This document shows, piece after piece, positions 9,087-50,168 of a stretch of DNA of 52,490 nucleotides. Below the pieces are notes generated by a model. The model was not told where the DNA came from and made no database searches. It worked only from the letters and a program-made list of their open reading frames with translations. The stretch is from the IMG/VR virus record IMGVR_UViG_3300006065_000007, positions 84,459 through 136,948 of that record; one strand, given 5' to 3'. This stretch comes from a virus. A program made the translations under genes and the position numbers. The first letter of the stretch is position 1. Each line of letters begins with the position of its first letter.

Positions 9087-9336
9087 TTATATTAGTACTA
9101 AAGAACTTTCCTTGTGAATCTGTCATTCTAAATTTTGTAAACATTTCCCAAGGAAAATCATAATACTCATAAATACTTCCATTATTGAAAGTGATCGTTA
9201 AAACTTTACTTTCAGTATCGTAAACCGCTTGTTTCAAATTACTTGATTTAATATCAACACTAATAATGTTTTTTTCAATTTTTTCTGTAATAATTCCCAT
9301 ATTATTTTTTTTTATAATATACGAAAAATAAATCAA
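9055..9336 (-). CDS. KTSC-domain protein
   Basis: SSNLKQAVYD..LTITFNNGSIYEYYD..SQGKFFSTNINGKY matches the KTSC pattern. Likely start is MGIIT at 9300. Confidence 0.85.
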   Translation of the reverse strand: MIYFSYIIKKNNMGIITEKIEKNIISVDIKSSNLKQAVYDTESKVLTITFNNGSIYEYYDFPWEMFTKFRMTDSQGKFFSTNINGKYNYKKIS

Positions 9337-14153: not shown

Positions 14154-14227
14154 GGGTTGGTAGTTTAGATGGCTAAAACACCTGATTTGCACTCAGGAGA
14201 CCGAGGGTTCGATGCCCTTCCGATCCA
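14154..14227 (+). tRNA. tRNA-Ala(TGC)
   Basis: Acceptor GGGTTGG/CCGATCC, anticodon arm CCTGA-TTTGCAC-TCAGG, GTTCGA T-loop. Confidence 0.9.
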
Positions 14228-14298
14228 CAAAACGTTCATTGACATGTTGGAATAAAAAAAAACAAAATAGGGTTATCATTAAGATAACCCCGAAAGAC

Positions 14299-14369
14299 GC
14301 CCTTATCGTCTAAAGGAAGGACACTACTCTTTCAAGGTAGAAATACGGTCTCGGGATCCGTTAAGGGTA
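14299..14369 (+). tRNA. tRNA-Glu(TTC), atypical T-loop
   Basis: Acceptor GCCCTTA/TAAGGGT, anticodon arm CTACT-CTTTCAA-GGTAG. Confidence 0.75.
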
Positions 14370-14406
14370 CTTTTTTTCATTTTGTTTATATTTATTATAT
14401 ATTAAA

Positions 14407-15720
14407 ATGAAACAAATGGACTATTAATGAAATAACATTATTAAAAAATAATTATGAAAAATTTGGAATTAAGAGGATATGTGAAGTAATACCAAATCAT
14501 AGTCGAAATAGTATTTTAAAAAAGGCTCATGAATATAATTTAAAAGTTGATAAAACTATATACTATCATTCTATAAATGAAATTGAAGACGTTGTTAAAT
14601 CTTCGTTATCTTTTTCAGAAGTTTTTAGAAAATTAAATAAATCGAAATCAGGAGATTCTTTTAAGGTATTAAAAAATTTTATTATTAAAAATGGTATTGA
14701 TACTTCTCATTTTGACCCATATAAAAATAATAAATCTAAAATAAAAAAAATATCTATTAATGATTGGTTAAATTATGGAACAAATATAACATCATCTAAA
14801 TTAAAAGAAAAATTGTATCAAGAAAAATTAAAAAATAAAGTTTGTGAATTATGTGGTCAAGATGAAAATTGGAACGGTAAAAAAATGTCACTAATTTTAG
14901 ATCATATCAATGGAATTAATAATGATAATCGATTGGAAAATTTAAGAATTGTATGTCCTAATTGTAACGCCACACTAGATACTCATTGTAAAGGATATAG
15001 GGGTTAAACATCAAGGAAGGTATTGAAAGAGTAAAGAGAAGTAAGCATGGTAGTAATGGACAGAAAAGAGCAAGAAGAGCATTAAAACAAAGAATTGACG
15101 AAACAGTAAAGGAATTATTTAAAGTCGAAACCCCTGATTTGATTGTTGTTGAACAATTAAAAAACATGGGACATAAAACAAAAGCCAAACGTCTATTGGC
15201 TAAAAATATGAGGCGTTCTATCGGTATTTGGAATTGGAAGTACTGGCTTAAAAGGTTACAAGAACACACTGAATTAAACCGTGTTTGGTTTAGAAGTGTA
15301 TCACCTTATTACACCAGTCAAACTTGTCCAAAGTGTAATCACACTGATAGGGGAAATCGAAATGGTGAAATGTTTAAGTGTTTGAGTTGTGGTTACACAA
15401 ACAATGCTGATATAAATGCAAGTATAAACATTTTAAATCGATTTCTCACGGGACAATACGGTGTCCGTTACAAACAAGAAAATCTACTTACCAATTTTTT
15501 GTAGATTTTTTTGAACGGTTTAATTAAAGATAATAATAATAATAATAATAATAAACAAAGAATAAATAAAAGAAAAGTTGAACGTCCTTCATATAATGAC
15601 TTATTAAATTATGTAAATATTAATGGATATTCTGCAACTGGTAGAAAATATGGTGTTAGTGATAATGCTATTAGAAAATGGATTAAATATTATGAAAAAA
15701 CAGAAAATATAATGTTTTGA
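14407..15720 (+). pseudogene. HNH homing endonuclease interrupted by a TnpB element
   Basis: The frame is open from about 14414 (KWTINE...) through CELC..LDHINGINNDNRLENLRIVCPNC..KGYRG and resumes as LIKD..KVERPSY..GRKYGVSDNAIRKW after the insert. The ATG at 14407 is one base out of frame. Paralog of 16451-17131. Confidence 0.8.
15004..15518 (+). mobile_element. tnpB: Truncated IS607/IS200-605-type element carrying the 3' part of tnpB
   Basis: RuvC-II IVVEQL, zinc finger TSQTCPKC..CLSCG and RuvC-III NADINAS. GG occurs at both junctions and the right end is ...TTTTGAACGG. Removing the insert restores the HNH frame. Confidence 0.8.
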
Positions 15721-15732
15721 TAATATATACAT

Positions 15733-15809
15733 GGTGTGTGGGGCTGCTTGGCGTGGCCGTCTGACTGTCACTCAGAAGATTCAGGTGGGTTCGATTCCCA
15801 TACGCACCG
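15733..15809 (+). tRNA. tRNA-Asp(GTC)
   Basis: Acceptor GGTGTGT/ACGCACC, anticodon arm TCTGA-CTGTCAC-TCAGA. Confidence 0.9.
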
Positions 15810-15849
15810 CATTATATGTTCTTTGACATGTTGATACAAATATTTTAAT

Positions 15850-15922
15850 GGTCGGTTCATCTAAATGGATAGGATATGAGACCTTCAATCTCATTATACG
15901 GGATCGTACCCCGTACCGACTG
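15850..15922 (+). tRNA. tRNA-Glu(TTC), second copy
   Basis: Acceptor GGTCGGT/ACCGACT, anticodon arm TGAGA-CCTTCAA-TCTCA. Confidence 0.8.
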
Positions 15923-15932
15923 CATTATAAAT

Positions 15933-16005
15933 GGTGTGATAGCTCCAATGGTAGAGCGAGGGACTGAAAATTCCTGCGTTGGTGGTTCAAGTCCACCTCA
16001 TACCA
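15933..16005 (+). tRNA. tRNA-Phe(GAA)
   Basis: Acceptor GGTGTGA/TCATACC, anticodon loop CTGAAAA, GTTCAA T-loop. Confidence 0.9.
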
Positions 16006-16038
16006 CAATAATTCAAAAAGAATTATTAATTAAATGAT

Positions 16039-16125
16039 GACTCTGTGGCCGAGTTGGAACTAGGCACCACACTTTTAATGTGGGATTCCAAAAGATGTAC
16101 GTGGGTTCGAGTCCCACCGGAGTCA
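16039..16125 (+). tRNA. tRNA-Lys(TTT) with a long variable region
   Basis: Acceptor GACTCTG/CGGAGTC, anticodon arm CCACA-CTTTTAA-TGTGG, 17-nt variable region. Confidence 0.8.
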
Positions 16126-16132
16126 CAAATTT

Positions 16133-16213
16133 CGGAGCGTAACCCTCCATCCTGATAAGATGGCTACGGGTAATTGGTAAGTGTAAATGTCAGTTCGATC
16201 CTGACCGCTCCGA
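16133..16213 (+). tRNA. Non-canonical tRNA-Ile(GAT)-like RNA with rearranged D region
   Basis: Acceptor CGGAGCG/CGCTCCG, anticodon arm CCATC-CTGATAA-GATGG only 7 nt after the acceptor, perfect T arm GTCAG-TTCGATC-CTGAC. Confidence 0.7.
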
Positions 16214-16283
16214 CAACAGTTTATTTTTTTTCATATAACTGTACTATTAGTACATAAAAAATATAAAAAATAAACAAAACATC

Positions 16284-16358
16284 ATAGGTGTGCCAGAGTT
16301 GGTCTATTGGCTCTGATTCCAAATCAGATGTTCGCGGGTTCGAATCCTGTCGCCTATG
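16284..16358 (+). tRNA. tRNA-Trp(CCA)
   Basis: Acceptor ATAGGTG/CGCCTAT, anticodon arm TCTGA-TTCCAAA-TCAGA. Confidence 0.88.
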
Positions 16359-16450
16359 CAAATAATACGGTTTATCTTTAAATAATCCGTATTTCAATTA
16401 GATTACCTAAACTTTTAATAGGGTTCGAAATATTTATATATAAAAAATAT

Positions 16451-17131
16451 ATGAAAACAATAACAAAAGATCAAATGTTAGAGATTATTAATAATTCTAA
16501 ATCTTTAAGAGAAGTTATTATAAAATTGGGTTTATCTACAAATGGGGGAGGTTGTTATAGTAATGTTAAAAATAAATTAAAAAAATTAGGGTTAGAAGTT
16601 CCAAAATATATAGGTGGTAACTATAAAAATTTTGTAAAAACAAGAAAAAAAAATACTGAAGTTTTTATTGAAAATTCAACATACCCAAGACAAAATTTAA
16701 AACGAAGAATTATAAACGAAAAATTAATTCCTTATATATGTAATAAATGTCATAATAATGGTATATGGGAAAATCAAAAATTAAGTTTACATTTAGATCA
16801 TATCAATGGAATTAATAATGATAATAGAATTGAAAATTTAAGATTTTTATGTCCAAATTGTCATTCACAAACTGAAACATATGGTGGAAAAAAAAATAAA
16901 AAGTTAATAGAAGAAAAATATCCTTTAATAAAACTTAAAAAACATACATTATCAAAAATTAAACAATATAAAAGTAAAACCAAACAAAGAAAAGTAGAAA
17001 GACCGTCATATGAACAATTATTAAATGAAATAGAACAACTTGGATATTCAGGAACTGGTAGAAAATATGGTGTATCAGATAATTCAATAAGAAAATGGGT
17101 TAAGTACTATAAAAAAGAAAAGGGGGTGTAG
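16451..17131 (+). CDS. HNH homing endonuclease with C-terminal HTH
   Basis: CNKC..LDHINGINNDNRIENLRFLCPNCHSQT. Its stop codon overlaps the 5' end of the next tRNA-like gene. Confidence 0.88.
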   Translation: MKTITKDQMLEIINNSKSLREVIIKLGLSTNGGGCYSNVKNKLKKLGLEVPKYIGGNYKNFVKTRKKNTEVFIENSTYPRQNLKRRIINEKLIPYICNKCHNNGIWENQKLSLHLDHINGINNDNRIENLRFLCPNCHSQTETYGGKKNKKLIEEKYPLIKLKKHTLSKIKQYKSKTKQRKVERPSYEQLLNEIEQLGYSGTGRKYGVSDNSIRKWVKYYKKEKGV

Positions 17132-17201
17132 TCGGTCCTGACTACGAATCAGGTAACTGTAATTGGATCTGAAAATGTGGGTTCGAATCCCACCACTCTC
17201 T
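17122..17201 (+). tRNA. Non-canonical tRNA-Arg(ACG)-like RNA with rearranged D region
   Basis: Acceptor GGGGGTG/CACTCTC, anticodon arm CCTGA-CTACGAA-TCAGG 8 nt after the acceptor, T arm GTGGG-TTCGAAT-CCCAC. Confidence 0.7.
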
Positions 17202-17227
17202 CGACTATTTATATATAAAGACATAAA

Positions 17228-17602
17228 ATGATAAGAAACACAAAGTTAAAAAGAATTTGTACTAATTGTAAAAAAGATATTAGTACCAATAGTAAAGAAA
17301 AAGAAATTTTTTGTTCTAAAGAGTGTGTTGAAGAATATCGTTCAACAAATAAAACAGATGTTAAAGTTAAAGAAAAAATTTTAGTTGAAGATATTTTAAA
17401 AGACATTAATAACTTAATTGTAGAACAAAATAATAAATGTAAAATTTGTAATGTTTCGTTTGATAAAATTAGACCACATATTTCAGAAACATATGATAGT
17501 AAAATAAAAGGTATTATATGTGAAAAATGTGATAAAGGATTAAAGTTTTTTTCAAATAACATTGGGATTTTAAAAAATGCAATAACGTTCTTAGAAAAAT
17601 AA
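17228..17602 (+). CDS. Endonuclease VII-like protein, probably degenerate
   Basis: QNNKCKIC...KIKGIICEKCDKGLKFF...LKNAITFL. The catalytic DH and N positions appear substituted. Confidence 0.65.
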   Translation: MIRNTKLKRICTNCKKDISTNSKEKEIFCSKECVEEYRSTNKTDVKVKEKILVEDILKDINNLIVEQNNKCKICNVSFDKIRPHISETYDSKIKGIICEKCDKGLKFFSNNIGILKNAITFLEK

Positions 17603-17603
17603 T

Positions 17604-17678
17604 GGGTAGGTGCTCGAGTGGTCAAAGGGAACGGACTGCAAATCCGTAAAGTCATCGGTTCGAATCCGATTCTACCCT
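17604..17678 (+). tRNA. tRNA-Cys(GCA)
   Basis: Acceptor GGGTAGG/TCTACCC, anticodon arm ACGGA-CTGCAAA-TCCGT, U73. Confidence 0.9.
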
Positions 17679-17691
17679 CACTTATATACAT

Positions 17692-17770
17692 GGTGTCTAT
17701 GGTGTTAATTGGTTAGCATGACAGATTGTGGTTCTGTTGGTGACAGGTTCGAGTCCTGCTAGACACACCA
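17692..17770 (+). tRNA. tRNA-His(GTG) with encoded G-1 and CCA
   Basis: Acceptor GTGTCTA/TAGACAC, anticodon arm ACAGA-TTGTGGT-TCTGT. Confidence 0.88.
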
Positions 17771-17772
17771 AC

Positions 17773-17855
17773 ACCGACATTGGACAACGGTTGTCCAGCA
17801 CTCTCATAAGGTGTGTTCTATATGAACATTATCGGTTCGAATCCGATTGTCGGTA
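17773..17855 (+). tRNA. tRNA-Met or Ile2 (CAT) with a variable-arm hairpin
   Basis: Acceptor ACCGACA/TGTCGGT, anticodon arm GCACT-CTCATAA-GGTGT, extra arm GTTC-TATAT-GAAC. Confidence 0.78.
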
Positions 17856-17954
17856 CAAATAAAAAAAAGTTCGGTATAAATTTGGTAATGTAAAAAATAG
17901 TTTGTATATTTGTACCATCAATTAAAAACAAGTTCTTTAAATAATGAAAAAAAT

Positions 17955-18089
17955 AGTGAGTGGTAATCGAAAGAGTTACTTCGTATTTTTAGATCAGTTG
18001 GATAGATCGTAAAATTTAGGTTTTTAATGTCGGTGGTTCGAATCCACCAAAATACAACATTGTAATACTCTTTTAACCTTTCCCTTACT
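17955..18089 (+). ncRNA. tRNA-like cloverleaf (TAG anticodon, 17983-18056) enclosed in a long bulged stem; Y-RNA-like
   Basis: 5' AGTGAGTGGTAATCGAAAGAG pairs with 3' CTCTTTTAACCTTTCCCTTACT. It has its own promoter at about 17906 and a boxA-like motif at 17932. Confidence 0.6.
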
Positions 18090-18098
18090 TTAATATAT

Positions 18099-18171
18099 TG
18101 TGGGGTGTTAGCAGAGGTAGCTAGCCGGGCTCATAACCCGGAGGTCGTGGGTTCAATTCCCACCCCCGCTA
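18099..18171 (+). tRNA. Initiator tRNA-fMet(CAT)
   Basis: 1:72 mismatch and three G-C pairs in CCGGG-CTCATAA-CCCGG. Confidence 0.88.
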
Positions 18172-18368
18172 CAAAAAAAATAAAAAAACTTTGGTATAAA
18201 TTTGGTAATGTAAAAAATAATTCGTATCTTTGTACCATCGAAAAAAGTTCTAAAAAATATATGGCGAGAAAGTTAAAAAAAGAAACTAAGACTAATTTTC
18301 TCTTGAATAGTAGTAATAGATTTAATTACATCGGAAAACAAATAGTATCATAATAAACAAATAACAAA

Positions 18369-18827
18369 ATGGGAGTAGATACCAAAGCAATCCTTAGAAA
18401 AGGAACAACGATTGAACAAATCGAAAAAGCAATTTCTGAAAAATATACAGAAGTTAAAGTTAGGGCAACAATGCCTGATTTTATGTATGTAATGTTCAAG
18501 GATGGTGCAGACCAAAGACAACTTGCAGTTTCATTTACAAATTCTTGCGAAAGAGAAGATAATATTGCAGGTGTTTGGACTTCTCTTGGTAAATGGGGAA
18601 ATTCAGTTGAAATAGCAAGATACCTTTGCGAATACTTTGGTGGCTACCTTGACGAAAACGATTGTGATGATGAAGGTTATTATCCAATAAACTTTCATCT
18701 TTACTCACAAGGTAATGAATTTACTAAACTTGATGAGTTTCGTCATAAGGTCATAAAAGAAGTTGGTTACGATAAACTAAAATCTGTTATGAAATTGCTC
18801 GATGAATATTTGGAGGTAGTGTCTTAA
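18369..18827 (+). CDS. Hypothetical protein, first gene of the cassette-like array
   Basis: ORF behind the promoter at about 18226, followed by GGCACATAAC. Confidence 0.7.
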   Translation: MGVDTKAILRKGTTIEQIEKAISEKYTEVKVRATMPDFMYVMFKDGADQRQLAVSFTNSCEREDNIAGVWTSLGKWGNSVEIARYLCEYFGGYLDENDCDDEGYYPINFHLYSQGNEFTKLDEFRHKVIKEVGYDKLKSVMKLLDEYLEVVS

Positions 18828-19065
18828 AATGGCACATAACGTATGGTGCTATGAGCAGGTTTGCCTTGCAGAAATGTTCAAGTTACCGAAAATGTTATTG
18901 GCAAACTTGCTTATAGCGTTAAATGTATGAAATGTAGGCGAATAGGAACTACTGCCCTATCAACCTGCACAAAACTAAATAGAAAGTAGAAAAGTATAAA
19001 CCTGCACTGAACTGCCTATATTTTATACATATTGTTAGGCGTATGTGCTTTATTTTTAAATCAAA

Positions 19066-19338
19066 ATGAGAAAACAAGTAGAAGAAGAATATTGGATTTG
19101 CATTATAGGTGCAGCCAATAGTAAAAATTTAAAAGGTGGCTCAGATTCGCCTATGAGAAATGCAGTTCAAAAAGCATTTGAGGAAACAACAGGACACGAA
19201 GACGAAACATGTTGGAGTGGTTGGGGTTCAGAAAAAGAAAAAGTAGATGTTGTAAATTCTGTTTGGTCAATGGATAAAGACGACCCATTATATGAAGCAA
19301 TTAAATGTATGCTCAAATGTGGTGGTCGGATTTCTTAG
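19066..19338 (+). CDS. Cassette hypothetical protein
   Basis: ORF bounded by complementary core sites. Confidence 0.7.
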   Translation: MRKQVEEEYWICIIGAANSKNLKGGSDSPMRNAVQKAFEETTGHEDETCWSGWGSEKEKVDVVNSVWSMDKDDPLYEAIKCMLKCGGRIS

Positions 19339-19412
19339 CATTACGCCTAACGGTCGAGTATTGGCGTTGTTGCCATCACAGAATTTAATTAATAACACTA
19401 AACTATAATATT

Positions 19413-19625
19413 ATGGAAAACTTATCAGAAAGCACGAACAGCAATAACGCTAATACTTTGTTAGCACCTGTTTATTCGCAAGATGAAGTTAAATCACTTA
19501 TTCAAGCGATATATTCAGAATTTGCAGAACTACCATTAAAAATGCACACAACTCATAACTTGCGTGGCATCATAGAACAAGAAGTTGAACAACACCCACT
19601 AAAACCAATTAAGATTTTTAAATAG
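19413..19625 (+). CDS. Cassette hypothetical protein starting inside the attC hairpin
   Basis: The ATG lies in the palindrome loop and the frame reads through GTTAGCA. Confidence 0.6.
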   Translation: MENLSESTNSNNANTLLAPVYSQDEVKSLIQAIYSEFAELPLKMHTTHNLRGIIEQEVEQHPLKPIKIFK

Positions 19626-19763
19626 GTGCTAACGGCGGTAATATGAAAAGTTGGCTTTGCAGACACTTTCAAGTTACCACATCAGTTTGATAGCCAATTT
19701 TTTATATTACGTGTTATCGGCTGCCTTTTATTAATCAAATTATTCACTTAAAATTTAAATAAA

Positions 19764-20081
19764 ATGGGATTAGATTTTTCACATACTTGTCCGAAAATAG
19801 ACAAGGCAATTTCAGAGGCAAAAGATACTATTATTGACTATCTGAAAAATTATATTACTGATTTATGCCCTTATATAAGTGATGATAAAGCAAATGAATT
19901 ATCAAAAGATTGGGGTACGGATTTATATAATAAAATTTCAGACGGATTTGAAGCCACAAGAGAAACAAATGAAGATATGAGAAAACAAGCAGACTATCAG
20001 ATTGAAAAACTCGAATCTGAAATTGAATATTTAAAGTCTGAAATTAAAGAACTCGAAAGCCAATTAGATGCTGTTTCTTAG
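19764..20081 (+). CDS. Cassette hypothetical coiled-coil protein
   Basis: ORF bounded by GTTATCGGC/GCCGATAAC. Confidence 0.7.
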   Translation: MGLDFSHTCPKIDKAISEAKDTIIDYLKNYITDLCPYISDDKANELSKDWGTDLYNKISDGFEATRETNEDMRKQADYQIEKLESEIEYLKSEIKELESQLDAVS

Positions 20082-20266
20082 GTTGCCGATAACGGTTGGC
20101 GGTATGAAATCGAAGCGGAATGCGAGCGATAAACTGTCAACCACTACAGAAGATTGAACGGGAGACAAAGCCCCAAAATAGCACTGAAACCGCTTTGTTT
20201 TATACCGCTTGTTATGGTTTCGTGCTTTATTAATCAGATTGTTAAACTTAAAAAATAAAATCAAAA

Positions 20267-20548
20267 ATGAAACAAACGGCAATTGAATGGCTATTAGAGA
20301 ATATGCCAGATTTAAGTCAAAATATAGAAATTGGGCTAACTCTTGAATTACATGCTAAACTTCAACATGCAAAAGAAATTGAAGAAGAGTTGCTAAAAGA
20401 TGCTTATTCAGATGGGATTAATGCACATCGTGTAAATTTTTGCAATAGGGATGAATATTTTCAAAAAGCATTCAGAGAAAATCAAACAGTTAAAAATCAA
20501 TTTTGCCCTTATTGTGGAAAATCTTCATGTTGTGGGGACTGTTCTTAG
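20267..20548 (+). CDS. Cassette hypothetical protein (MKQTAIEWL, Cys-rich tail)
   Basis: ORF bounded by GTTATGGTT/AACCATAAC. Confidence 0.7.
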   Translation: MKQTAIEWLLENMPDLSQNIEIGLTLELHAKLQHAKEIEEELLKDAYSDGINAHRVNFCNRDEYFQKAFRENQTVKNQFCPYCGKSSCCGDCS

Positions 20549-20792
20549 CATGAACCATAACGGTTGGGTGTATATGTAGTGTGAGATTTGAAAGACTGAA
20601 CTTGACTTAACCACAAATATTGATTAGAATGATGAACTTGGATAAACCACTGAATCTCACATTACATATACACCTTGTTATGTACAGGTGCGGTGAAGTT
20701 CAGACAAAACGCAATTAGAACCACAGACAAAAACAAAAAGAATTTTGGGTGGAAATTTTAAATTCAAATATTTATATATATAAAAGAAAACG

Positions 20793-21305
20793 ATGAAAGA
20801 TTTGAAGAAATTTATAGCGACTACAATAAGAGAATATCTGAACGAAAACATTTATAGTGAAATACCACAACCATTTGAGGGTATTGATGTAATTGGTATG
20901 GGAACATTTGGTAATAAACAATACCCAACAGATGCTTATGAAGCCTTTTCAGAACAATATGATTTACCAAATGAACCAATATTATATATACATAGTTTTT
21001 TCCCAAATGAAGAATACAGAGGTAAAGGATTAACAAAAAAATATCTATTAAAAACGCTTTCAGATTGGATTAATAATAGATTAAATAACAAAGAATTAAT
21101 TGAAAGAATAGGTATGCGTTCATTACGAAAATTTGGTGGGAGTGATTTATTTGGAACATCTTCTTTTTATGATGAAGGTGAAAAATTCTTCAATAATTTA
21201 GTTGATAATGGTTATTTAGAAAAAATTAATTTAAATAAAAACAAGGATGGTAGGGCTTTAAATTTATTTAAAATAACGGATAAGACTAAAAACCTAAATA
21301 TTTAA
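20793..21305 (+). CDS. Cassette protein, possibly GNAT-like, with its own TATTTATA motif
   Basis: LYIHSFFPNEEYRGKGLTK resembles GNAT motif A. Confidence 0.55.
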   Translation: MKDLKKFIATTIREYLNENIYSEIPQPFEGIDVIGMGTFGNKQYPTDAYEAFSEQYDLPNEPILYIHSFFPNEEYRGKGLTKKYLLKTLSDWINNRLNNKELIERIGMRSLRKFGGSDLFGTSSFYDEGEKFFNNLVDNGYLEKINLNKNKDGRALNLFKITDKTKNLNI

Positions 21306-21445
21306 AATGTGCGTTGGAAAATTCTTTTTGTTTTCTTCACTGAACTTAATTAGAAGTACTAATTTAGCACTTGTACATAACACGTTATATATTAACATTA
21401 ACTAAAGATTAACAAAAAGAATATCAACAAATTAAACTATAAAAT

Positions 21446-21679
21446 ATGAAAGATAATCAAGCGTTTGTTATTACTGTTCAAACTGAACTTGGACAATGTT
21501 ATTTAGGTGAAAGAGATAGTATAATGACTAAACCAAGTGGTGCTGTATTTTATCACGATGAAATGTATGCAAAGTCTGAATTAAATAGAGTTATTTCAAC
21601 ATATAGTTATACAGAAAATACATTCTTAAATGATAAGAGTAAATTGTCAATCAAGTTGGTTGAAATAAATATTTTATAA
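21446..21679 (+). CDS. Cassette hypothetical protein
   Basis: ORF between GTTATAT and TTATAAC. Confidence 0.55.
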   Translation: MKDNQAFVITVQTELGQCYLGERDSIMTKPSGAVFYHDEMYAKSELNRVISTYSYTENTFLNDKSKLSIKLVEINIL

Positions 21680-21882
21680 AATGTTTAATATTGATTATAA
21701 CGGTTGCAAATATTAAAAAGGATATGGTAAAGATGTTGAGGGTAGTATAATGAACTATGGTGAAATATGTAATTGTAATAGATATTTTCTTTGTGAACAT
21801 AGAATACAATGGATTGTGGACTTTATTAAGAAGAATTATGTATAACGGTTACAGATATATTTAGTTTTTTAATTATAATAAT

Positions 21883-22131
21883 ATGGAAGAAAAATATTTA
21901 GAACAATACAGAAACAACGGAATTAATTTTAATGAAACACAGGAAAAATTAAATATATCTGTTGTTATACAACGTTTGATTGAACGAAAAGAAAAATTGT
22001 TAAGAGATGTAGAATACTACGATTATTGTGTGAATGGAGGTGCTTATTTTCGTGAAGATGTTACTTATTACATTAGAACAATAAAGAGTAGATTAGTAGA
22101 GTTGGATTATCTTTTAGAAAATGTTGTCTAA
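21883..22131 (+). CDS. Cassette hypothetical protein starting inside the attC hairpin
   Basis: The frame reads through GTTATAC and its stop is part of GTCTAAC. Confidence 0.6.
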   Translation: MEEKYLEQYRNNGINFNETQEKLNISVVIQRLIERKEKLLRDVEYYDYCVNGGAYFREDVTYYIRTIKSRLVELDYLLENVV

Positions 22132-22218
22132 CGTCCTGGTGTATGATTAGTTTTAATTAATTATACCCATGAAAAAGGAAGTAAAAATAAAAGATTTTGT
22201 CAACAAACGTTAATTATT

Positions 22219-22467
22219 ATGGATGAAGTTAAAATGTTTTTATTCGCAAGGTGGATAGCTACTTGTTACGCTGATTCACATTTGGATAGTAAAATGAAGT
22301 GTGAACACGATGAAGGATTTAAAGAAAGTGAAGCAATATCTGTTTTAAATAGAGAAACAGGATACTGGTATAAGGAACAACTAAAACATTTTAATGATGT
22401 TGTATATCCAAATTACCTTGAAAACGGAACTGTTGATAATACGAAGCAGTTTTTTAATGTTTACTAA
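22219..22467 (+). CDS. Cassette hypothetical protein
   Basis: Its stop is part of TACTAACGGTTG. Confidence 0.55.
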   Translation: MDEVKMFLFARWIATCYADSHLDSKMKCEHDEGFKESEAISVLNRETGYWYKEQLKHFNDVVYPNYLENGTVDNTKQFFNVY

Positions 22468-22717
22468 CGGTTGGGTATATGTATGTAAAACAAAAATTAT
22501 AACTATGAAAAAAGAAGTAAAAATAGAAGATTTTGTTAGCAAAGATGAACTTGATGCTATGACAGAGACAGAACGTGAAATTTATGATAAAGTATTTCTG
22601 ATGAATAAACAAAATCTACAAGGATTGACTGACGCACTTGATATGATAAATAAAGTAAAAGAAAAAGATGGTGGATAATTTTTTATATCATATAACTAAA
22701 TTAAAATAATTGTCCAT

Positions 22718-24409
22718 ATGGAAAACTCAAAATATTTAAAATCATTCGGAGAACATTTGCGTCAATTAAGAGAAACTTCAGGACTGACACAAAAGGAAGT
22801 TGCTATTAGACTTTCTGTTGATAATTCTTTACTTGCTAAAATTGAACGCAATGAACGACCACCAACAAAAAAATTCATAAAAAATGTTGCATTGTTTTTC
22901 AAGGTTGATGAAAAAGAATTGCAGAATGAATTTTTAAGCGACCAAATTGCATACAGAATAATTGGAGAAAATGCTGATTTAAATATTTTTAAGGGTTGCA
23001 GAAGAGAAAGTGTTTTACTTAAAAAACAGAGAAAAATGTTAACAAAGGAATATATAAAAGAATTAAAAGGCAATGGCAACGGTGATATTGACCATCTGGT
23101 AAATATATTTCAAGATAGTGCTTCCTTGACTTTTATACTTGAAAATCTTGGTCAGTTGCCTAAAGACTTTGATGGTAGTTTCTTGCCTAATCTTTTATCT
23201 CATAAAAATGCAAATGTTAGGCTATGGGCTGTCAAAACCATTGGGAAATTAGTTAAAGAAGACTATTTGCCAATTCTTAAAAATACAGCTGCAACTGATA
23301 GCGACACAAATGTTAGACGCGAAGCAGTATCGTTAATAGGACGAATGAGAACCCCAAAAGGGCAAAAAGTTTTACAAGAGATACTCCAAGACAACGACCC
23401 TAAAATCGTATGCCAAGCCATTCGTGGTTTGCTTGTTTTCAAAGGAGACAACAGTATTGATAATAGTTTAAAACCATTGGTAAATCACGAAAACGAAATG
23501 GTTCGGACTGTTATTTACAAAGAGTATTTTGCAGTGCCAAAAGATAAAAACGGACAACCTCATACAGAAAGTTACGACTATTTAAAAAATGTTGTTGTTA
23601 ATGCCGATACAATTGAAACTATGAAATTGCTCAATGATGAAAGCATTCATTTGACTTTTACATCACCTCCATACTACAATGCAAGAGATTATTCAATTTA
23701 TCCAAGTTATAAAGCATATTTGGAATTTCTTGCAGATGTATTCAGGGAAGTTCACCGTATAACTAAAGAAGGACGTTTCCTTATAGTAAACACTTCGCCA
23801 ATAATAATTCCGAGAATTAGCCGAGCACATAGCAGTAAACGCTATCCTATTCCTTTTGACATTCACCCATATTTAATGGAAATGGGTTGGGAATTTATTG
23901 ACGATATTGTATGGATGAAACCAGAAGCAAGTGTAAAAAATCGTATTGGCGGATTTCAGCAACATAGAAAACCACTTGGGTACAAACCTAACTCCATAAC
24001 TGAGTATTTAATGGTTTATAGAAAATCAACGGAAAAACTTTTAGATTGGAATATACGTCAATACGACTGGCAGACCGTACAGGAAAGTAAAGTTCCTGAA
24101 GGTTACGAAACTACAAATGTTTGGAAAATTAACCCTTGCTTTGATAAGGTACATTCTGCTGTGTTCCCAGTTGAACTTTGTAAACGAGTTATTCAATATT
24201 ACTCTTACAAAGGCGATTTAGTTTTTGACCCATTTGGTGGAAGCGGAACAATGGGAAAAACTGCTAAAAGTTTAAACCGTTATTTTTTCTTGACAGAAAA
24301 AGATGAAAACTATTTCGAGTATATGAAATCGAAGAAAACAAAAGAAATGTTTGATACTTATGAAACAAAATTTTTAACACTTAAAGAATTTAAAGAAACA
24401 ATAAAATGA
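22718..24409 (+). CDS. XRE-HTH controller fused (probably by a 1-nt frameshift) to a HEAT-repeat N4/N6 DNA methyltransferase (beta class)
   Basis: HTH GLTQKEVA..LAKIERNER, HEAT repeats, TSPPY, HSAVFP and DPFGGSGT. A separate MTase start is likely at 23036. Confidence 0.85.
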   Translation: MENSKYLKSFGEHLRQLRETSGLTQKEVAIRLSVDNSLLAKIERNERPPTKKFIKNVALFFKVDEKELQNEFLSDQIAYRIIGENADLNIFKGCRRESVLLKKQRKMLTKEYIKELKGNGNGDIDHLVNIFQDSASLTFILENLGQLPKDFDGSFLPNLLSHKNANVRLWAVKTIGKLVKEDYLPILKNTAATDSDTNVRREAVSLIGRMRTPKGQKVLQEILQDNDPKIVCQAIRGLLVFKGDNSIDNSLKPLVNHENEMVRTVIYKEYFAVPKDKNGQPHTESYDYLKNVVVNADTIETMKLLNDESIHLTFTSPPYYNARDYSIYPSYKAYLEFLADVFREVHRITKEGRFLIVNTSPIIIPRISRAHSSKRYPIPFDIHPYLMEMGWEFIDDIVWMKPEASVKNRIGGFQQHRKPLGYKPNSITEYLMVYRKSTEKLLDWNIRQYDWQTVQESKVPEGYETTNVWKINPCFDKVHSAVFPVELCKRVIQYYSYKGDLVFDPFGGSGTMGKTAKSLNRYFFLTEKDENYFEYMKSKKTKEMFDTYETKFLTLKEFKETIK

Positions 24410-24490
24410 CATTAACAGAACAAGTAGCCAAGAACATCATTCGTAAACTTTTAAAAGGGGATGATTACAGAATTGAAGTAGTAACGCTTA
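24406..24490 (+). pseudogene. 5' stub of a type II restriction endonuclease (CfrBI-like)
   Basis: ATGA overlap with the MTase stop. MTLTEQVAKNIIRKLLKGDDYRIEVVTL resembles CfrBI-family N-termini as I recall them, then changes abruptly to AT-rich phage-like DNA. Confidence 0.55.
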
Positions 24491-25332
24491 ATTATATAAA
24501 AACTATGGTGCTTTTTGGTGGACACCTTATAAAAAATACCCTAGAGTTAAATTCCTGAAACAATTAATTAAAAAATATTCCAATGATGAAAAATAATGAT
24601 ACAAATTTATTGAATGATGAAATTTATAATATCATTAATTCAAAAATTCAAGACGAATTTATTTGTAAAACTCTTGATGAAGCTGTTCTTTGGCTTTCAA
24701 AACAAGAACATCCTATGGGTTATTCAGGTTGTAATATGTCTATCGGACTATACATCAATATTAATAATAAAAACCTATTTTTATTAAAGGTTTTGATGAT
24801 GAAGGACTAGCAAGAAAAAAACGAAAAGAATTAAAAAAAAACAATGAAAACTGATATTGAACTACTTAATTTATTCCTTAATGAGGTTAAATTACAATTT
24901 CCCGTTAACTTCAAAAATACATATGGCATCCCTCCAGGACTTTGCTACTTATTATTTTTTTTATTTAAAATGAAATTAAATGAAAAAATATCTAACGATG
25001 ATTATAATAGATTATTATAACTAATAATAGACCTAATAATAATAGACCTTATGATATGTACTGGTGGGAACCTTATATAAGAACCCCTAGAGTGAAATTT
25101 ATTAAACAACTAATACAATTATATTCTAATGAAAAGACTCGGCATTAATACAGTTCAAATTAAAAAAAGAATGTTAAATACATGTTCATCTTGTAAACAT
25201 TTCGGATCTCAAGGTTCATTAGGTCTTGTTAAAGATAATTCTAATAACGACTTTAAATCTTGCTCAGCATTTATTTTCCAAGATTTAATAATAATAATTT
25301 TTAATGACTATCTTTGTTTAAAAGAAAATATT

Positions 25333-26193
25333 ATGACACTTTGGAATAACGATACTGAAATTCAATTCTTTACGGAAGCGTTAAAAAACTTTGCTTCTCC
25401 TGAACAATTATTTTATAATCTGCAAGGTGGATACTTTGCTTATGTCCCAAAAGGCTCAGATGCCGAAGGACAAACTTTACAAAGCAGAAGCTCATTAATT
25501 GGACAATTTACAGAAAAATGGAGTAAAACTCTTTTTGAACCAATTGCAAATGAACTGGGACTATTTGCAGTTAACAGTGTAGTATGTGATGAACTCGGTT
25601 TATCAAGACAATCAAGTGCAGACCTTGCTTTTTGCACTACCAATCAGACAAACCAAAGGCCTGAAAACATTATACTGCTTTTTGAAATTAAAATGAGTGT
25701 TGTGTCGAACTACAAGTTTACACAGCCGAATAAAGTTGAATTCATTGGCGATTACAAGCAACATAAAGGCAATCCTGCATTACTGCGTTCTGACTCAATG
25801 TTAAAAGCAATAGGAAAGTCTATAAACATTCGTGTTTCAGGTATCGCTTCTACAAAAATACCAGTTGTAGTTTTGGGTAACAGCCCAATAACTGAAAGTT
25901 ATATTAAGAAAGTAGACTTTCTGAAAACTTCTGGAGTTATTCAAGGTTTTTGGTCGTTAAATCCAAAGCCAACTAATTCAGACTTTGTTAAAAACACTTC
26001 AAAATTAGGATTTCAAACTATCCTAAACGGAGAGCAACTACTTAATAACTGCAAAGAACTTGTAACAAATGATATGAATTATTTTTCTTCTATGATTTCA
26101 AAATTGAAATTGGGTGAAATAATTCGAATTGCAAGCCAAGAAGCAACTGACATTGCTAAAGCAGAGAAATTTTTAAACTTAATCCGAAGCTAA
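25333..26193 (+). CDS. Putative type II restriction endonuclease (PD-(D/E)xK)
   Basis: SADLAF...LFEIKMS, directly upstream of an MTase. A TATCTTTG promoter at about 25310 favours the MTLWN start. Confidence 0.7.
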   Translation: MTLWNNDTEIQFFTEALKNFASPEQLFYNLQGGYFAYVPKGSDAEGQTLQSRSSLIGQFTEKWSKTLFEPIANELGLFAVNSVVCDELGLSRQSSADLAFCTTNQTNQRPENIILLFEIKMSVVSNYKFTQPNKVEFIGDYKQHKGNPALLRSDSMLKAIGKSINIRVSGIASTKIPVVVLGNSPITESYIKKVDFLKTSGVIQGFWSLNPKPTNSDFVKNTSKLGFQTILNGEQLLNNCKELVTNDMNYFSSMISKLKLGEIIRIASQEATDIAKAEKFLNLIRS

Positions 26194-26194
26194 A

Positions 26195-27136
26195 ATGAAA
26201 AGACAAAACGGAACAGAGACAAGTGCTTTCGGAACAAACGGAAGAATTAATCACGATAGTTCAAAATTTTACAACTCTAAATTATATTCAGAACTAGGGG
26301 ACAAAAAAGTACTTGATAAAAACGAAAATGATTTTCCCGATAAATTGGAGAATAAATTTATTCTTGGCTCTGCCGAGAATATGAAAGAATTGCCTGACAA
26401 TTCAGTTCATTTGATGATAACTTCACCGCCCTACAATGTTTCAAAAGAATATGATGAAGATTTATCTTTAAAAGAGTATTTACAACTTCTTGAAAATTCA
26501 TTTAAAGAAACTTACAGAGTGCTTGTTAATGGTGGTCGTGCTTGTATAAATGTCGCTAATCTTGGTAGAAAACCTTACATCCCTTTATCAGATTACATTT
26601 CAAAAATGATGTTAGATATTGGTTTTAATATGCGTGGTGAAATTATTTGGAATAAAGCAGCAAGTGCAAGTCCTTCGACAGCTTGGGGTAGTTGGCAAAG
26701 TGCTGCTAACCCAATTTTGAGAGACATACACGAATATATTTTAATTTTTTCTAAAGGCGATTATAAAAGAGAAAAAGGTAAAAAAGAAAACACCATTTCA
26801 AAAGAACAATTTATGGAATGGACAAAATCAATCTGGACAATGAATGCAGAGAGTGCAAGAAGAATTGGACACCCTGCACCATTTCCCGAAGAATTACCAA
26901 ATAGACTAATTCAACTTTATTCATTTAAAGGTGATATTATCTTAGACCCATTTATGGGTAGTGGAACAACTGCTGTTTCTGCTTTGAAGACTGATAGAAA
27001 ATTTGTAGGATATGACATAAGCAAAGAATATATTGACCTTGCAGAGAAAAGAATTGAACCGTTATTAAAACAAACAAAGATAGCATTTAACCTGACAGTA
27101 TTGGAAGAAGAGCCACAAACCGCTAACAAAGGCTAA
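26195..27136 (+). CDS. N4/N6 DNA methyltransferase (beta class)
   Basis: ITSPPYN, HPAPFP and LDPFMGSGTT. Confidence 0.9.
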   Translation: MKRQNGTETSAFGTNGRINHDSSKFYNSKLYSELGDKKVLDKNENDFPDKLENKFILGSAENMKELPDNSVHLMITSPPYNVSKEYDEDLSLKEYLQLLENSFKETYRVLVNGGRACINVANLGRKPYIPLSDYISKMMLDIGFNMRGEIIWNKAASASPSTAWGSWQSAANPILRDIHEYILIFSKGDYKREKGKKENTISKEQFMEWTKSIWTMNAESARRIGHPAPFPEELPNRLIQLYSFKGDIILDPFMGSGTTAVSALKTDRKFVGYDISKEYIDLAEKRIEPLLKQTKIAFNLTVLEEEPQTANKG

Positions 27137-27251
27137 AATCAAGCGGGCAGAAAGTGCTAATTTGAAGGGTATTGCATCTAATAAACTTCATCGTAAATTG
27201 ACAGTGAAGTTCTCCGAAATGCCCGCCAGCTTTTAGCCTCAACCGTTATGC
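27121..27251 (+). repeat. Canonically oriented attC site
   Basis: CGCTAAC-aa-AGGCTAAAA..GCGGGCA...TGCCCGC..TTTTAGCCT-caacc-GTTATGC, overlapping the MTase stop. Confidence 0.75.
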
Positions 27252-27499
27252 ACAAGTGGAAAAAAGACAACGACACAGTAAATTGACAATGAAAATGGAA
27301 TATTAACCCACATTGCAGGGTTTTCCTCAAAAAATGATAAAAAAGCTGTTAATAACCCGGAATTTATTAACAATGATCCAATTTGCAGAATAAATAACCT
27401 TTGATAATCAAGTGTTTGCGTTTTTAGGTTACTTGATTTTGTAAATGTTGTACCCCCGCTCTTGTTGCTGATTAACAAACAGTTGCATAGCTTTACGGC

Positions 27500-28531
27500 A
27501 TGTTTGTCAAGCCATATATTAAACATAACAAGACAACCGGTGAGCGTTACACGGTTTACAAGCTGGTTGAAGGTTGCCGTGTGAACGGACAGGTAACCCA
27601 CCGGATCATTGTAAGCTTTGGCCGGCTGGATGAACTGGACACTGATGACCGGAAAAAACTTTTGGGGCGGCGCGTGGAACAACTAATTGTAAATGGTGGC
27701 AACACACTTAGCATCAGCCAGGCCGACGGGCAGGTAGAAGAGCTTGCGCGCTATTATTACGAAGAGGTAAAAAAGAGAAGGCGGTACGATATAAAGCAGG
27801 GGAAAGCCGATTGGGAAACGGTCGATATGTCCACATTAAAGAACAAAGATGCCCGTGAGGTTGGGGCCGAATGGTTGTGCAGGCAAGCCTTTGACCAGTT
27901 GGGCATTGGTGGTTTTTTGCAGCAATCGGGATGGGACCAGCAGGAAATTGCGCTGGCTGCCACACATATCATCAGCAGGGCGGTATATCCGGCATCGGAA
28001 CTGAAAACTGTTTCATATATAAGGGAGAACTCAGCCATAAGCGAGATAACCGGGGTTGACAGGGAAAAGGTAACAAAGGACAAGCTCTACGGCATATCGC
28101 ATAAGCTTTACCAGATCAAAGACCCGATGGAGCAGTACTTGTCAAAGCGTACCAACGAGTTGTTCGACCTTGAGGACAAGATCATCCTATACGATTTGAC
28201 CAACACCTATTTTGAAGGCCGGATGCAGGGCAGCCGGGTAGCCAAATTTGGCCGCAGCAAAGAAAAGCGCAACGATGCCCGGATAGTGGTACTGGCCGTA
28301 GTGGTGAACCGTGAAGGGTTTTTAAAATACTCGAACATTTACCAGGGTAACATGGCCGATTGCAAGACACTGGAGGGGATAATCAATGCAATCAGCGCAC
28401 AAACATCTTTTTCACACCGCAAGCCTATCGTAGTGACCGATGCCGGTATTGCCACCGATGAAAACCTGCGAATGCTCAAGGGCAAAGGGTTTGAATACAT
28501 GTGTGTTTCACGCTCCTCGTTAAAAGAGTAA
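27500..28531 (+). mobile_element. IS1634-family transposase, C-terminally truncated
   Basis: LYDLTNTYFEG, FGRSKEKRND and VVTDAGI. GC content is visibly higher. It ends at the IS1595 boundary. Confidence 0.85.
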
Positions 28532-29534
28532 ATGATTATCGTATTCGATACCTAAATTCATTTTTTGATGTTACGCCAACAATAAGTAATCGATCAAAAA
28601 GAGCTTCGCCAAAATATCTCCTATTGAATTTATAGCAAAACTCATTCAGGTAGCCTTGCAAATATTCTGGTTTGATGTTATGGTGTATATCCAGGATCAT
28701 TCTTTTTGCATTGCTAATTGCCAGGTGTACCCATGGTAATATTTCCCCTACTTTTTCTTTGGGGATTACCTGTGGCTGATGCATTGAAACAAGGTTACCC
28801 AAATCCCTGTAAGAAGTAGAATCATCCGTGATCAAAGTTGATCCGGGTGAAACATTTGCACTGACCTGCTCATTTATGGTGCCAGCTTTAAGGTCCGGGA
28901 TTACCTGCATCTTAATAAACCCCACCTTCCGTGGTTTACCCTTTTTTGACTGTTCTCCTTCGACCTTCTTGCTTTCAGCCATTACCAAAACTTTGGTCTT
29001 CTTTTGGCTACCCCTTCCCCGCTTCCTTGGTTTATACTTTTCTTCAGGTTTTATTTCGGTTGAGAAAAAGCCTTCATCCAACTCAATCTGACCGGAAAGT
29101 ATATATTGAGAATCTCTTTTACCCATCGCTATTCTGAGTTTATGCAGCATTGTCCAGATAGGCTCGTAGTATTTATGCCCTAATTGCCTCTGTAATTCCA
29201 ATGCTGAAAAACTCTTCTTCGTTGACGTTAGAAGGTGCATGGCAACAAACCAATAACGAAAAGGCAATTGGGAACCATGCATAATTGTACCACTTCGTAA
29301 AGTCGTCCTTGTTTTGCATTTTTTACATTCATATTGCCACTTGTCCCTTTTCCAATAATGGTCAGTGCAGCCACACCGTCTGCATATAACCCCTTCCTTG
29401 TCCCTGATTGCCTTCAGCTTCAATTTGCAGCTCTCTTCATCGGGGTATTGGCTGATAAAATTAAGCAAGTTCATATCCCATGTAGTTTAATGACCTTAAA
29501 GATAATACAATTAGGCACAATATACGATATACAT
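28532..29534 (-). mobile_element. IS1595-family element; transposase at 28536-29474
   Basis: Zinc ribbon CRRC..CKKC, IELDE, LITDD and YLNEFCYKFNRR. Imperfect terminal IRs ATGATTATCGTAT / ATACGATATACAT. Confidence 0.85.
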
Positions 29535-39972: not shown

Positions 39973-40302
39973 AGATAATAGTTTTTTTTAATTATACCAA
40001 AAAAATAAAACTTTATTTAGTTTTTATTTTTGAAATACCATTTTATAAATTCTATAACATAATAATAAGCAGTTTGAATATCGACACTTATATACATTCC
40101 CATTTTTATTTTTTGTTTATACAAAGATAATTCTTTTTTATGAATGTACCAAATATTTTCGATATTTTTTTTACGCGGACTGAAGGTTAAAAACTTAAAT
40201 GGCAAATGTAATACGAATCGCCATTTAAGTTTTGAATCCAGATGATCTATATCTGGTTGATTAAAGCAAAAAAAAGGTGTTCATTTTGAACACCCTCTTT
40301 TT

Positions 40303-49196: not shown

Positions 49197-50168
49197 TTAT
49201 GAATAAACTAATGATTGTAACTTCTCAACCGTTGATTTTAAATCTTTAACATCACAAATTTTGTGAAACTTTTGATTTTCGTATGACCAATCACAACCAT
49301 TTATAATTTCACCCAAACAATTTAAATAAATTTGACTTTCTTCAAAATCATCTAAAGATTCTATTGTATTTATAAAATTTTCTCGACCCATTCTAGATCG
49401 ACCCTCTTTTATTAAACTAATACCATGTTATAGCCAATTAAAAGTGCGTACACGTTTCAGCTGTTCGTTAAATTTGCAAGGGCAATAATAATCAGAGCAT
49501 TCAACTTTTGGATTACCTGCTGCACAATCAATACAACGCCCTTTCATCCAAGTATCGCCTTCAAATTTAACTTTCTTAAATTGTAATCTCCAAAATATTC
49601 GTTTTATCAGTTTCATAATTAAATAATTAACTGGCTATAACAAGCAATATAAAACAGTTGCCAGAAAACTGCATCATATTTTGAAACGTCTTATAAGGCA
49701 ACCGTTTCATATTGCCGACCGATAATAATCGAAATTATTTTTTTCAAATTTAAATTTAAAAAAAGACAAACCAGATAATAATGAAATATCATAATCACAT
49801 TCATATGAATGATAAATGTCATTTGATACATCAACAGAACAAAATTCTTTCTCATCACAATATGAATACATTTTTAAACAAAATAAGATAAATTCCTCTG
49901 TTATTTTAACACCATTAGTTGCGATATAAAAAGAACTAATTGGAATATTTAATTCTTTTACCCTATTCAAAAAATAATTCATAATAAGTACATTTAATGT
50001 CGGTTCACCACCTGTAAACGTTACGGTACTAATACTGTCAACCTGAATTAAAAGTTGATCAATGTAAACCTTTGAAATATTTTTATTCATCGGTTCACCC
50101 CTCAAACAATGTTCACACATTATGTTACATTTTCGAGTTACTTCAATCATTAAATTTCTAATTTCCAT
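49197..50168 (-). pseudogene. Radical SAM protein split by a cassette insertion
   Basis: CNIMCEHC, FTGGEP and ATNG in the 5' part. HGISLIKEGR..IYLNCLGEIINGCD continues in the same frame beyond the 294-bp insert. Confidence 0.8.
49428..49721 (+). mobile_element. Single integron-like cassette (attC 49635-49721 on +; ORF 49428-49616 on -)
   Basis: G^TTATAGCCA...TGGCTATAAC-aa-GCAATAT..GTTGCC...GGCAAC..ATATTGC-cgacc-G^ATAAT. Confidence 0.8.

Follow-up and report, generated by a model that had tools for sequence, protein, structure and literature searches.

The textbook case of genes being captured by way of folded sites in single-stranded DNA is the integron, which is regarded as bacterial and defined by its integrase IntI. 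Integrase-free arrays of attC-like sites (clusters of attC sites lacking integrases, CALINs) have been described in virulent phages, often with DNA methyltransferase cassettes, and their sites were handled as ordinary attC sites and assayed with IntI1, an assay in which one of them, P12002L_attC1, failed (Qi et al. 2023, PMC9892861). Another kind of repeated phage hairpin, the promoter early stem-loops (PeSLs) of T4-type phages, combines promoter and terminator motifs and is thought to act via homologous recombination (PMC2839356, PMC4122927). Here we analyzed an array of small genes and hairpins in the virus record IMGVR_UViG_3300006065_000007 (136,948 bp), of which the terminal 52.5 kb (52,490 nucleotides, positions 84,459 to 136,948) are referred to as the window. 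At window positions 18837-22538, seven intact and four decayed hairpin sites occur together with ten small open reading frames (ORFs). In our view these are probably some ten mobile cassettes, arrayed one after the other and belonging to a phage-borne integron-like system, in which each unit consists of a hairpin followed by its gene and is moved by a Xer/IntI-like recombinase. This reading draws on site anatomy, covariation, flank pairing, linkage to a recombinase, the positions of breakpoints and one precise insertion; the evidence is comparative throughout, and from it we infer circles, the folding strand and the pairing of enzyme and site.

Hairpin sites and flank pairing

An initial annotation of the window, made from the letters of the sequence alone, had described about nine small ORFs separated by palindromes bounded by TAAC and GTTA, ending at 22468, and had read them as a cassette array. 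The series of sites is real, and so are the small ORFs between them, but there are ten of the latter and the array extends about 70 nt further. The intact sites (S1, S1b, S2, S3, S4, S5 and S8) share one layout: TAAC, four to seven unpaired nucleotides (typically GGTTG), a stem of 17-25 bp, a loop of 35-75 nt, the return arm, zero to three nucleotides (typically TT) and GTTA. The decayed sites (S6, S7, S9 and S10) keep the cores, with little or nothing left of the stem. Folded as single-stranded DNA, the intact sites form attC-like structures, that is, imperfect hairpins with AAC/GTT outer cores, inner boxes and an unpaired spacer, the last appearing as a one-sided bulge that adjoins the TAAC/GTTA pair. 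The motif TAACGGYNG is found eight times in the window, compared with an expectation of 1.07. The ten cassette ORFs between the sites encode proteins of 31-170 aa, none of which matched a Pfam family; PHROG matches were obtained for only two, both of unknown function. Our ungapped site scanner missed S4, which has a bulged stem, and the site of a lone cassette described below, which has the hybrid core TATC; these were recovered by eye or with G.T pairs allowed. Two other scanner matches (8948-9200 and 25018-25231) are weak and look like chance.

The sequences that flank a gene on its two sides are complementary to each other. When the 12 nt 3' of each GTTA were compared with the reverse complement of the 12 nt 5' of the next TAAC, 59 of 96 positions in the window matched; permuted flank partners gave 27.9 +/- 5.8 matches, and 0.005% of the permutations reached 59. 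The two flanks of one single site showed no pairing in the window. For 272 cassettes on other contigs, 8.1 of 12 positions matched between the flanks of the same cassette, 4.3 between the flanks of the same site and 4.2 in random pairs. Since pairing of gene flanks is a mark of units that were once closed into circles, these figures bear out the complementary cores noticed earlier around each ORF and with them the interpretation as a cassette array.

The same figures bear on the idea that the hairpins are miniature transposons (of the REP/PATE or IS200/IS605-like kind) which spread alone, the intervening genes being no part of the unit. A few hairpin types are indeed near-identical over dozens of unrelated contigs, and transposase genes are located nearby (27500-29474). 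However, these transposases are of the DDE and not of the Y1/HUH type, the hairpin moves together with its downstream gene, and same-site flanks, which would pair if a hairpin had entered a palindromic target by itself, are paired at the random level only (4.3 of 12) while same-gene flanks are paired, which excludes a self-inserting hairpin. The hairpin alone was therefore rejected as the mobile unit, and the transposon explanation is extremely improbable.

The sites of the array belong to a widespread family. A 16-mer from S5 was found at more than 116 loci in IMG/VR, about 90 of them with a full site, and the homology of the S5 region to more than 30 loci begins at 20556-20558. Family sites follow the pattern TAAC-(G-rich 4-6 nt)-nnGTATR stem...stem-(1-3 nt)-GTTA with the flank ATTnnnnA-TAAC, and so do the window sites. 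Among 495 distinct sites, stem positions 1-19 are paired in 80-100%, each with two to five or more pair types, positions 8 and 13 largely via G.T; also conserved are the inner box GTAT/ATAC, a one-sided spacer of 3-5 nt, ATT five nt before TAAC and AGT five nt after GTTA. In an alignment of 25 diverse sites (two window sites plus 23 diverse family members), RNAalifold detected compensatory changes at 15 of 17 pairs. Non-Watson-Crick stem positions are G.T or T.G in 695 and A.C or C.A in 35 cases, and in 92% of the sites the fold of the TAAC-GGTTG strand has the greater stability (by a mean of 2.1 kcal/mol). Both the G.T bias and the greater stability indicate that the TAAC-GGTTG strand is probably the strand that folds.

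The mobile unit and the linked recombinase

Which hairpin belongs to which gene can be read from cassettes that recur in different contexts. The upstream hairpin was retained despite a different preceding cassette in 10 of 13 pairs (identity was 0.80-0.82 in the others; baseline 2%), and the downstream hairpin differed where the next cassette differed in 13 of 15 pairs; these statistics include contigs that were fetched twice and correspond to about 14 independent comparisons. The stretch that is identical between contexts reaches from the left TAAC belonging to the upstream site as far as the TAAC(G) of the next site downstream, and the latter breakpoint holds even between unrelated downstream hairpins.

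A single insertion elsewhere in the window has the same boundaries. A lone cassette of 294 bp (49428..49721, minus strand) lies in a radical-SAM gene (organic radical activating enzyme-like; 50168 to 49197, minus strand), which it splits. It comprises a site (49638-49724), a flank, an ORF of 62 aa (49428-49616), the complementary flank and TAA; the ORF is Cys-rich, is encoded on the same strand as its site and has as its stop the TAA of the closing TAAC. In silico deletion of 49428-49721 joins FDYY to HGISLIKEGRS, residue for residue as in homologues of 225-233 aa, and the target was cut at TAT|C. Within the array, the ORFs starting at 19413, 21883 and 22505 begin inside a site and cross its GTTA, an arrangement that can persist only if site and gene travel together. 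The breakpoints and the lone insertion thus point to a unit with the hairpin first and the gene second, exchanged at TAA|C. As far as sequence comparison can tell, this supports a hairpin plus its downstream gene as the mobile unit and the left TAA|C as the putative crossover. It had been proposed before that the hairpin travels upstream of its gene, and the kept upstream hairpins, the left-TAAC breakpoints and the lone cassette at 49428-49721 all speak for this.

The breakpoints have to be considered also in view of a different role of the hairpins, namely as regulatory RNA structures (terminators or processing/stabilising stem-loops) between early genes that are swapped by homologous recombination at the repeats. 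The hairpins are found on the transcribed strand with conserved wobbles compatible with G.U, they separate small ORFs in a variable region, some of the hairpins containing a start codon, and the PeSLs of T4-type phages provide a precedent (PMC2839356, PMC4122927). Yet exchange took place at a core of 4-5 nt between unlike hairpins, which is too short for homologous exchange, and the gene-specific complementarity of flanks has no role in a terminator model. Nor are the precise insertion of a cassette into a coding sequence at TAT|C and the 29-fold higher number of sites before than after a tyrosine recombinase gene (see below) expected from RNA hairpins. The stems are not followed by a T-run, a motif scan of the window detected no host-type promoter motif inside the array, and the breakpoints are located at the core, all of which differs from PeSLs. 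We regard a purely regulatory function as quite improbable.

A tyrosine recombinase of 265-271 aa is encoded in 11 of 24 site-bearing records, including four of the five near-complete ones, and relatives of it are found at at least 190 IMG/VR loci. Within 10 kb of the recombinase gene in the best 79 of these 190 loci, 376 co-oriented sites are located upstream, compared with 13 downstream and eight on the other strand, and the distance from the gene to the nearest site is mostly 60-1000 nt. In related phages the recombinase sits at the 3' end of the arrays and is co-oriented with them. We also considered that the recombinase gene itself is a cassette, but this was rejected, as a downstream complementary flank with TAAC occurred at no more than control level. 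The recombinases contain Phage_integrase and SAM_4 domains, the residues R-K-H-R-H-Y are invariant among them, and their best matches are archaeal XerA proteins (NF040815 with 177-195 bits at a cut-off of 220; PDB 4A8E). The insert specific for IntI is missing: TIGR02249 matches with 151-171 bits (cut-off 265) and in two stretches, and the alignment to IntI4 (2A3V) stops at residue 181.

The initial annotation had suggested that the array would use either a host IntI or a recombinase encoded elsewhere. The first suggestion does not agree with linked enzymes that have no IntI insert, such as the short Xer-like recombinases of related phages. The partner enzyme is most likely a dedicated Xer-like recombinase of 265-271 aa and not a host IntI, and judging from its linkage to the sites it would also perform the chemistry. 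An integron remnant (CALIN) made of ordinary attC sites that a host IntI recombines in the course of infection, the phage contributing no enzyme, would explain the attC-like geometry, the resemblance of TAAC-GGTTG...CTT-GTTA to the aadA7 oligo in Table S3 of Qi et al., the fact that the family member P12002L_attC1 is called an attC site by HattCI, and the lack of a recombinase in the record itself. However, P12002L_attC1, which has the architecture and the loop TCGTTTTAATG of the 48-nt class of the family, alone of six sites gave no verified IntI1 recombinants and was missed by the covariance model. In addition, the arrays are tightly linked to a recombinase without the IntI insert, and Bacteroidota arrays with the same sites also use a Xer-like enzyme. 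This explanation is thus unlikely. A tyrosine recombinase was not found in Pseudoalteromonas phage H101 and Polaribacter phage P12002L, the phages with published attC sites.

For an integron-like system of hairpin-first cassettes, the following course of events can be envisaged. The recombination site would be an imperfect DNA hairpin composed of an R box (TAAC/GTTA and flanks), an unpaired spacer (GGTTG / TT), an inner box (nnGTATR/YATACnn) and a variable stem and loop, and the unit would consist of this hairpin and the following gene, which is encoded on the TAAC-GGTTG strand. Strands would be exchanged in the left core, at TAA|C, and the excised unit would close to a circle in which the gene flanks pair over 10-14 nt, so that the hairpin is lengthened. 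The enzyme would be, as in related phages, a co-oriented Xer/IntI-like tyrosine recombinase of 265-271 aa encoded just 3' of the array.

Composition, polarity and state of the array

All sites and ORFs of the array are located on the plus strand. An ORF of 152 aa before the first site (18369..18827) runs into the left flank of S1 (aatggcaca-TAAC) and terminates there; the partner of this flank (GTTAtgtgcc) was not found upstream. S1 (18837..18921; TAAC-gtatggt-18-bp stem-loop-stem-GTTA; DNA fold -14.2 kcal/mol, z -2.0) is followed in tandem by a second hairpin, S1b (18919..19037), with an 18-bp stem including G.T pairs, a degenerate left core TTAA and the right end att-GTTA; the S1b hairpin differs from the minimum-energy fold. 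The next ORF (19066..19338; 90 aa, no family match) has the flanks GTTAggcgta / tacgccTAAC. S2 (19348..19463; 17-bp stem) contains in its loop the ATG of an ORF of 70 aa (19413..19625) that reads through the GTTA core, and S3 (19630..19716; 19-bp stem) precedes an ORF of 105 aa (19764..20081; phrog_32976, unknown function). S4 (20090..20214), the stem of which has one bulge, is followed by an ORF of 93 aa with a Cys-rich C-terminus (20267..20548). The best hairpin is S5 (20558..20680; 22-25 bp stem, z -4.6), which represents a 123-nt type common in IMG/VR; the 5' untranslated region (UTR) and the first ~19 codons of the ORF behind it (20793..21305; 170 aa) are a leader module common to many cassettes.

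The remaining sites, with the exception of S8, are decayed. S6 (21378..21387) is a scar, TAAC-ac-GTTA, from which the hairpin has been lost, and its left flank is paired with the right flank of S5 at 10 of 12 positions; an ORF of 77 aa follows (21446..21679). Of S7 (21698..21706), TAACGGTTG, left core and spacer are present and the right arm is absent. The stop of the subsequent ORF of 31 aa (21750..21845) is the TAA of the S8 core. S8 (21843..21967; 19-20 bp stem) includes in its loop the ATG and 28 codons of an ORF of 82 aa (21883..22131), which reads through the S8 GTTA and has its stop codon in the S9 core (TAA). S9 (22129..22202), a decayed paralogue of S10 with the right core GTCA, carries a truncated leader ORF (MKKEVKIKDFVNKR followed by a stop), and for the ORF of 82 aa behind it (22219..22467) the TAA of the S10 core serves as stop codon. 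S10 (22465..22538; TAAC-ggttg ... ttt-GTTA) is without a stable stem and contains the ATG of the last small ORF (22505..22678; 57 aa), which reads through the GTTA core.

The S9 and S10 paralogues are 79% identical (22105-22235 versus 22440-22570), and in both the leader ORF starts with MKKEVKI(K/E)DFV; it is cut after 14 codons in S9 and forms the 57-aa protein in S10. The module consisting of S5, the 5' UTR and the first ~19 codons of ORF 20793 (MKDLKKFIATTIREYLNEN; 20556-20850) recurs with 70-87% identity in dozens of loci (88 blastn matches), and the ORFs diverge downstream of it. The shared N-terminus with its L-x-E motif may be akin to the leaders that target internal proteins of T4 to the capsid.

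The sites are asymmetric, with 4-7 nt after TAAC versus 0-3 nt before GTTA. The array genes lie on the strand that reads TAAC-GGTTG...CTT-GTTA, which is bottom-like, and are not arranged in the integron layout of a gene followed by its attC site. The only site of the array family in the window with this canonical layout is a solitary one in reverse orientation (27124..27248, minus strand; z -3.3), which reads TAAC-aa-stem..stem-caacc-GTTA on the plus strand and follows the methyltransferase gene at 26195-27136. Its partner flank (GTTAgcggtt) was not found upstream of the methyltransferase gene, and both this site and S1 are array ends or solitary. The inverted asymmetry of the array with respect to this copy, which the initial annotation had placed at 27121, is real; the copy represents this same element, located on the opposite strand.

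Sites of the same family are also present in chromosomes of Bacteroidota (Maribacter, Flagellimonas, Polaribacter and Crocinitomicaceae), with arrays in Maribacter CP138991 (L273) and in L272, L259, L237 and L269. In these arrays each gene is followed by a site TAAC-aa...caacc-GTTA, and the array is located downstream of a XerA-type recombinase of 371-385 aa, which shows 40-44% identity with the phage enzyme over the matched stretch. An 88-nt hairpin type is common to phage arrays and the Crocinitomicaceae contig L272. In Table S3 of Qi et al. 2023 (PMC9892861), of which the strand colouring was lost, the complement of the aadA7 oligo TAAC-GCTTGAA...GAATT-GTTA has the end GTTAGATGCACTAAGCAC. 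We take this sequence to be where the class 1 3'-conserved segment begins, in which case the oligo would represent the bottom strand. Together, the canonical Bacteroidota arrays and the aadA7 oligos sustain the earlier argument that the polarity of the phage array is inverted relative to the canonical one.

On L272, which derives from a Crocinitomicaceae metagenome-assembled genome with a 385-aa recombinase, a phage-type 88-nt hairpin is followed by the phage leader module (window 20732-20850) on the opposite strand (L272:9349-9606). This looks like a phage-style hairpin-first cassette in a host array, with the polarity of its site matching that of the host sites. In phage H101 (NC_029094), the PH101_attC2 forward oligo of Qi et al. 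is found on the gene-sense strand and is taken here as bottom strand (the strand colouring being lost); the sites at 1100-1155, 2503-2560 and 3110-3170 are followed by a repeated leader of ~60 nt and then by differing ORFs. Gene-inverted polarity may be common among phage attC-like sites.

The record has a G+C content of about 27% and a completeness of 44% according to CheckV. The Bacteroidota-type promoter motif TTTG-N18-21-TAnnTTTG is present 21 times in the window, compared with 3.65 expected occurrences, and this excess points to a host among the Bacteroidota; the record thus probably represents a large phage infecting Bacteroidota. The carriers of the hairpin-cassette family are virulent-type large phages. 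One copy of the motif, TTTG-N20-TATCTTTG (18201..18232, plus strand), is located upstream of ORF 18369 and the array and agrees with the putative promoter that had been predicted at about 18226. Thirteen copies, mostly near-identical (TTTGGTnnTTTAAAATAAATGTATTATCTTTG-like), are found 5' of minus-strand genes at 39970-52284. Directly 5' of the array is a tRNA cluster (14154-18172; 13 genes according to Rfam, 10 according to ARAGORN) with an HNH-endonuclease-like ORF within it (16451-17131); an Rfam scan of the window at gathering thresholds recovered tRNAs only. The region right after the array (22718-29474) encodes an HTH-HEAT-N6/N4 methyltransferase, a second methyltransferase (26195-27136), whose gene overlaps with its end the canonical-orientation site 27124-27248, and two transposases, one with a weak DDE match (27500-28531) and one of the IS1595 family (28536-29474, minus strand). 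Insertion sequences are unusual for virulent-type phages.

Several observations weigh against an integron-like system of mobile hairpin-first cassettes at this locus. The absence of an integrase from the window, already noticed in the initial annotation, extends to the whole 137-kb record (44% complete), in which neither a tyrosine recombinase nor a remnant of one was found, and the usual place of the recombinase after the last site is taken by the 57-aa ORF and the HTH-HEAT-methyltransferase gene. A close relative of the array was not found, either in the phage collection (one 4% match) or in searches with the 563-aa methyltransferase and ORF 19066, and for this reason the gene order of the array itself could not be compared. 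The assignment of hairpins to genes is based on only about 14 independent cassette-pair comparisons, some contigs being counted twice. The cassette 19714-20112 recurs with 89% identity and unrelated neighbours in the phage contig L291, but it is shared only from G|TTA on, which a right-hand crossover would fit too; the scar TAAT...ATTA suggests to us that this breakpoint reflects the loss of the hairpin stems. Finally, the G.T bias of the stems suits an RNA hairpin equally well as a DNA hairpin, and the same hairpin could also have a role as RNA.

In L291, the only contig sharing a window cassette, the upstream site (2900-2960) consists of TAAT, 27 AT-rich nucleotides and ATTA, which suggests that hairpin stems are deleted once they are out of use. 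A complete phage genome with sites but without a recombinase does exist (G017). Taking into account the lack of a recombinase in the sampled 44% of the genome and the four stemless sites, the array is probably either orphaned and decaying or served in trans. That some recombinase was at work in this lineage fairly recently is evident from the lone cassette at 49428-49721, which is intact.

Comparison with known systems

In a full-text search of the literature, phage attC clusters were found only in Qi et al. (2023), in addition to the PeSL papers; a short recombinase, a hairpin-first unit or a link to Bacteroidota arrays is described in none of them. Beyond the interpretation of this array we propose, tentatively and with slightly less than even confidence, that large Bacteroidota phages run their own gene capture with a minimal Xer-type recombinase and with cassettes in which the site, and at times the start codon with it, is placed ahead of the gene, that the sites are a currency shared with integron-like arrays of Bacteroidota chromosomes and allow direct trade between phage and host, and that site polarity is set by the chemistry, the orientation of the gene marking a cassette as phage- or host-adapted. 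If integron logic does operate in these phages, it would explain how small accessory genes in their variable regions are gained and lost one at a time, it would open a way for phages and their Bacteroidota hosts to exchange genes directly, and it would provide a compact pair of recombinase and site for finding the essential features of attC-type recombination. A word of caution concerns attC finders, which list such phage sites as ordinary integron parts.

PeSLs are similar to the array described here in that stem-loops recur on either side of small accessory genes, in the variable parts of large phage genomes, and in their association with modular gain, loss and swapping. In contrast to PeSLs, for which there is no dedicated recombinase, the present family has its exchange points at a core of 4-5 nt, shared by hairpins that are otherwise unlike, and shows linkage to a tyrosine recombinase. 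The phage CALINs are closer: P12002L_attC1 belongs to the site family analyzed here, and P12002L_attC2 follows a methyltransferase gene in canonical orientation like the site at 27124-27248 (PMC9892861). The chromosomal arrays of Bacteroidota share the site family and the logic of flank pairing, but their recombinase is about 100 aa longer at the N-terminus and encoded upstream of the array, and the sites come after the genes.

With integrons the phage family has in common hairpin-forming sites that combine AAC/GTT cores with an unpaired spacer and a second, inner box and whose structure is kept while the sequence varies; core flanks that are complementary for each cassette; a crossover at AA|C of one strand; and small, mostly unknown genes arrayed beside a tyrosine recombinase with a SAM_4-type N-terminal domain. 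In contrast to integrons, the enzyme of the phage family comprises only 265-271 aa, does not have the IntI insert and fails to reach the cut-offs for IntI, and it is encoded at the 3' end of the array in the same orientation, whereas IntI is divergent across attI. Moreover, the gene follows the hairpin, on the strand that resembles the bottom strand of attC, the flanks pair over 10-14 nt instead of 7, and the carrier is a virulent-type large phage. It thus appears that integron logic is realized here with a smaller enzyme that has no IntI insert, with reversed cassette polarity and in virulent-type phages.

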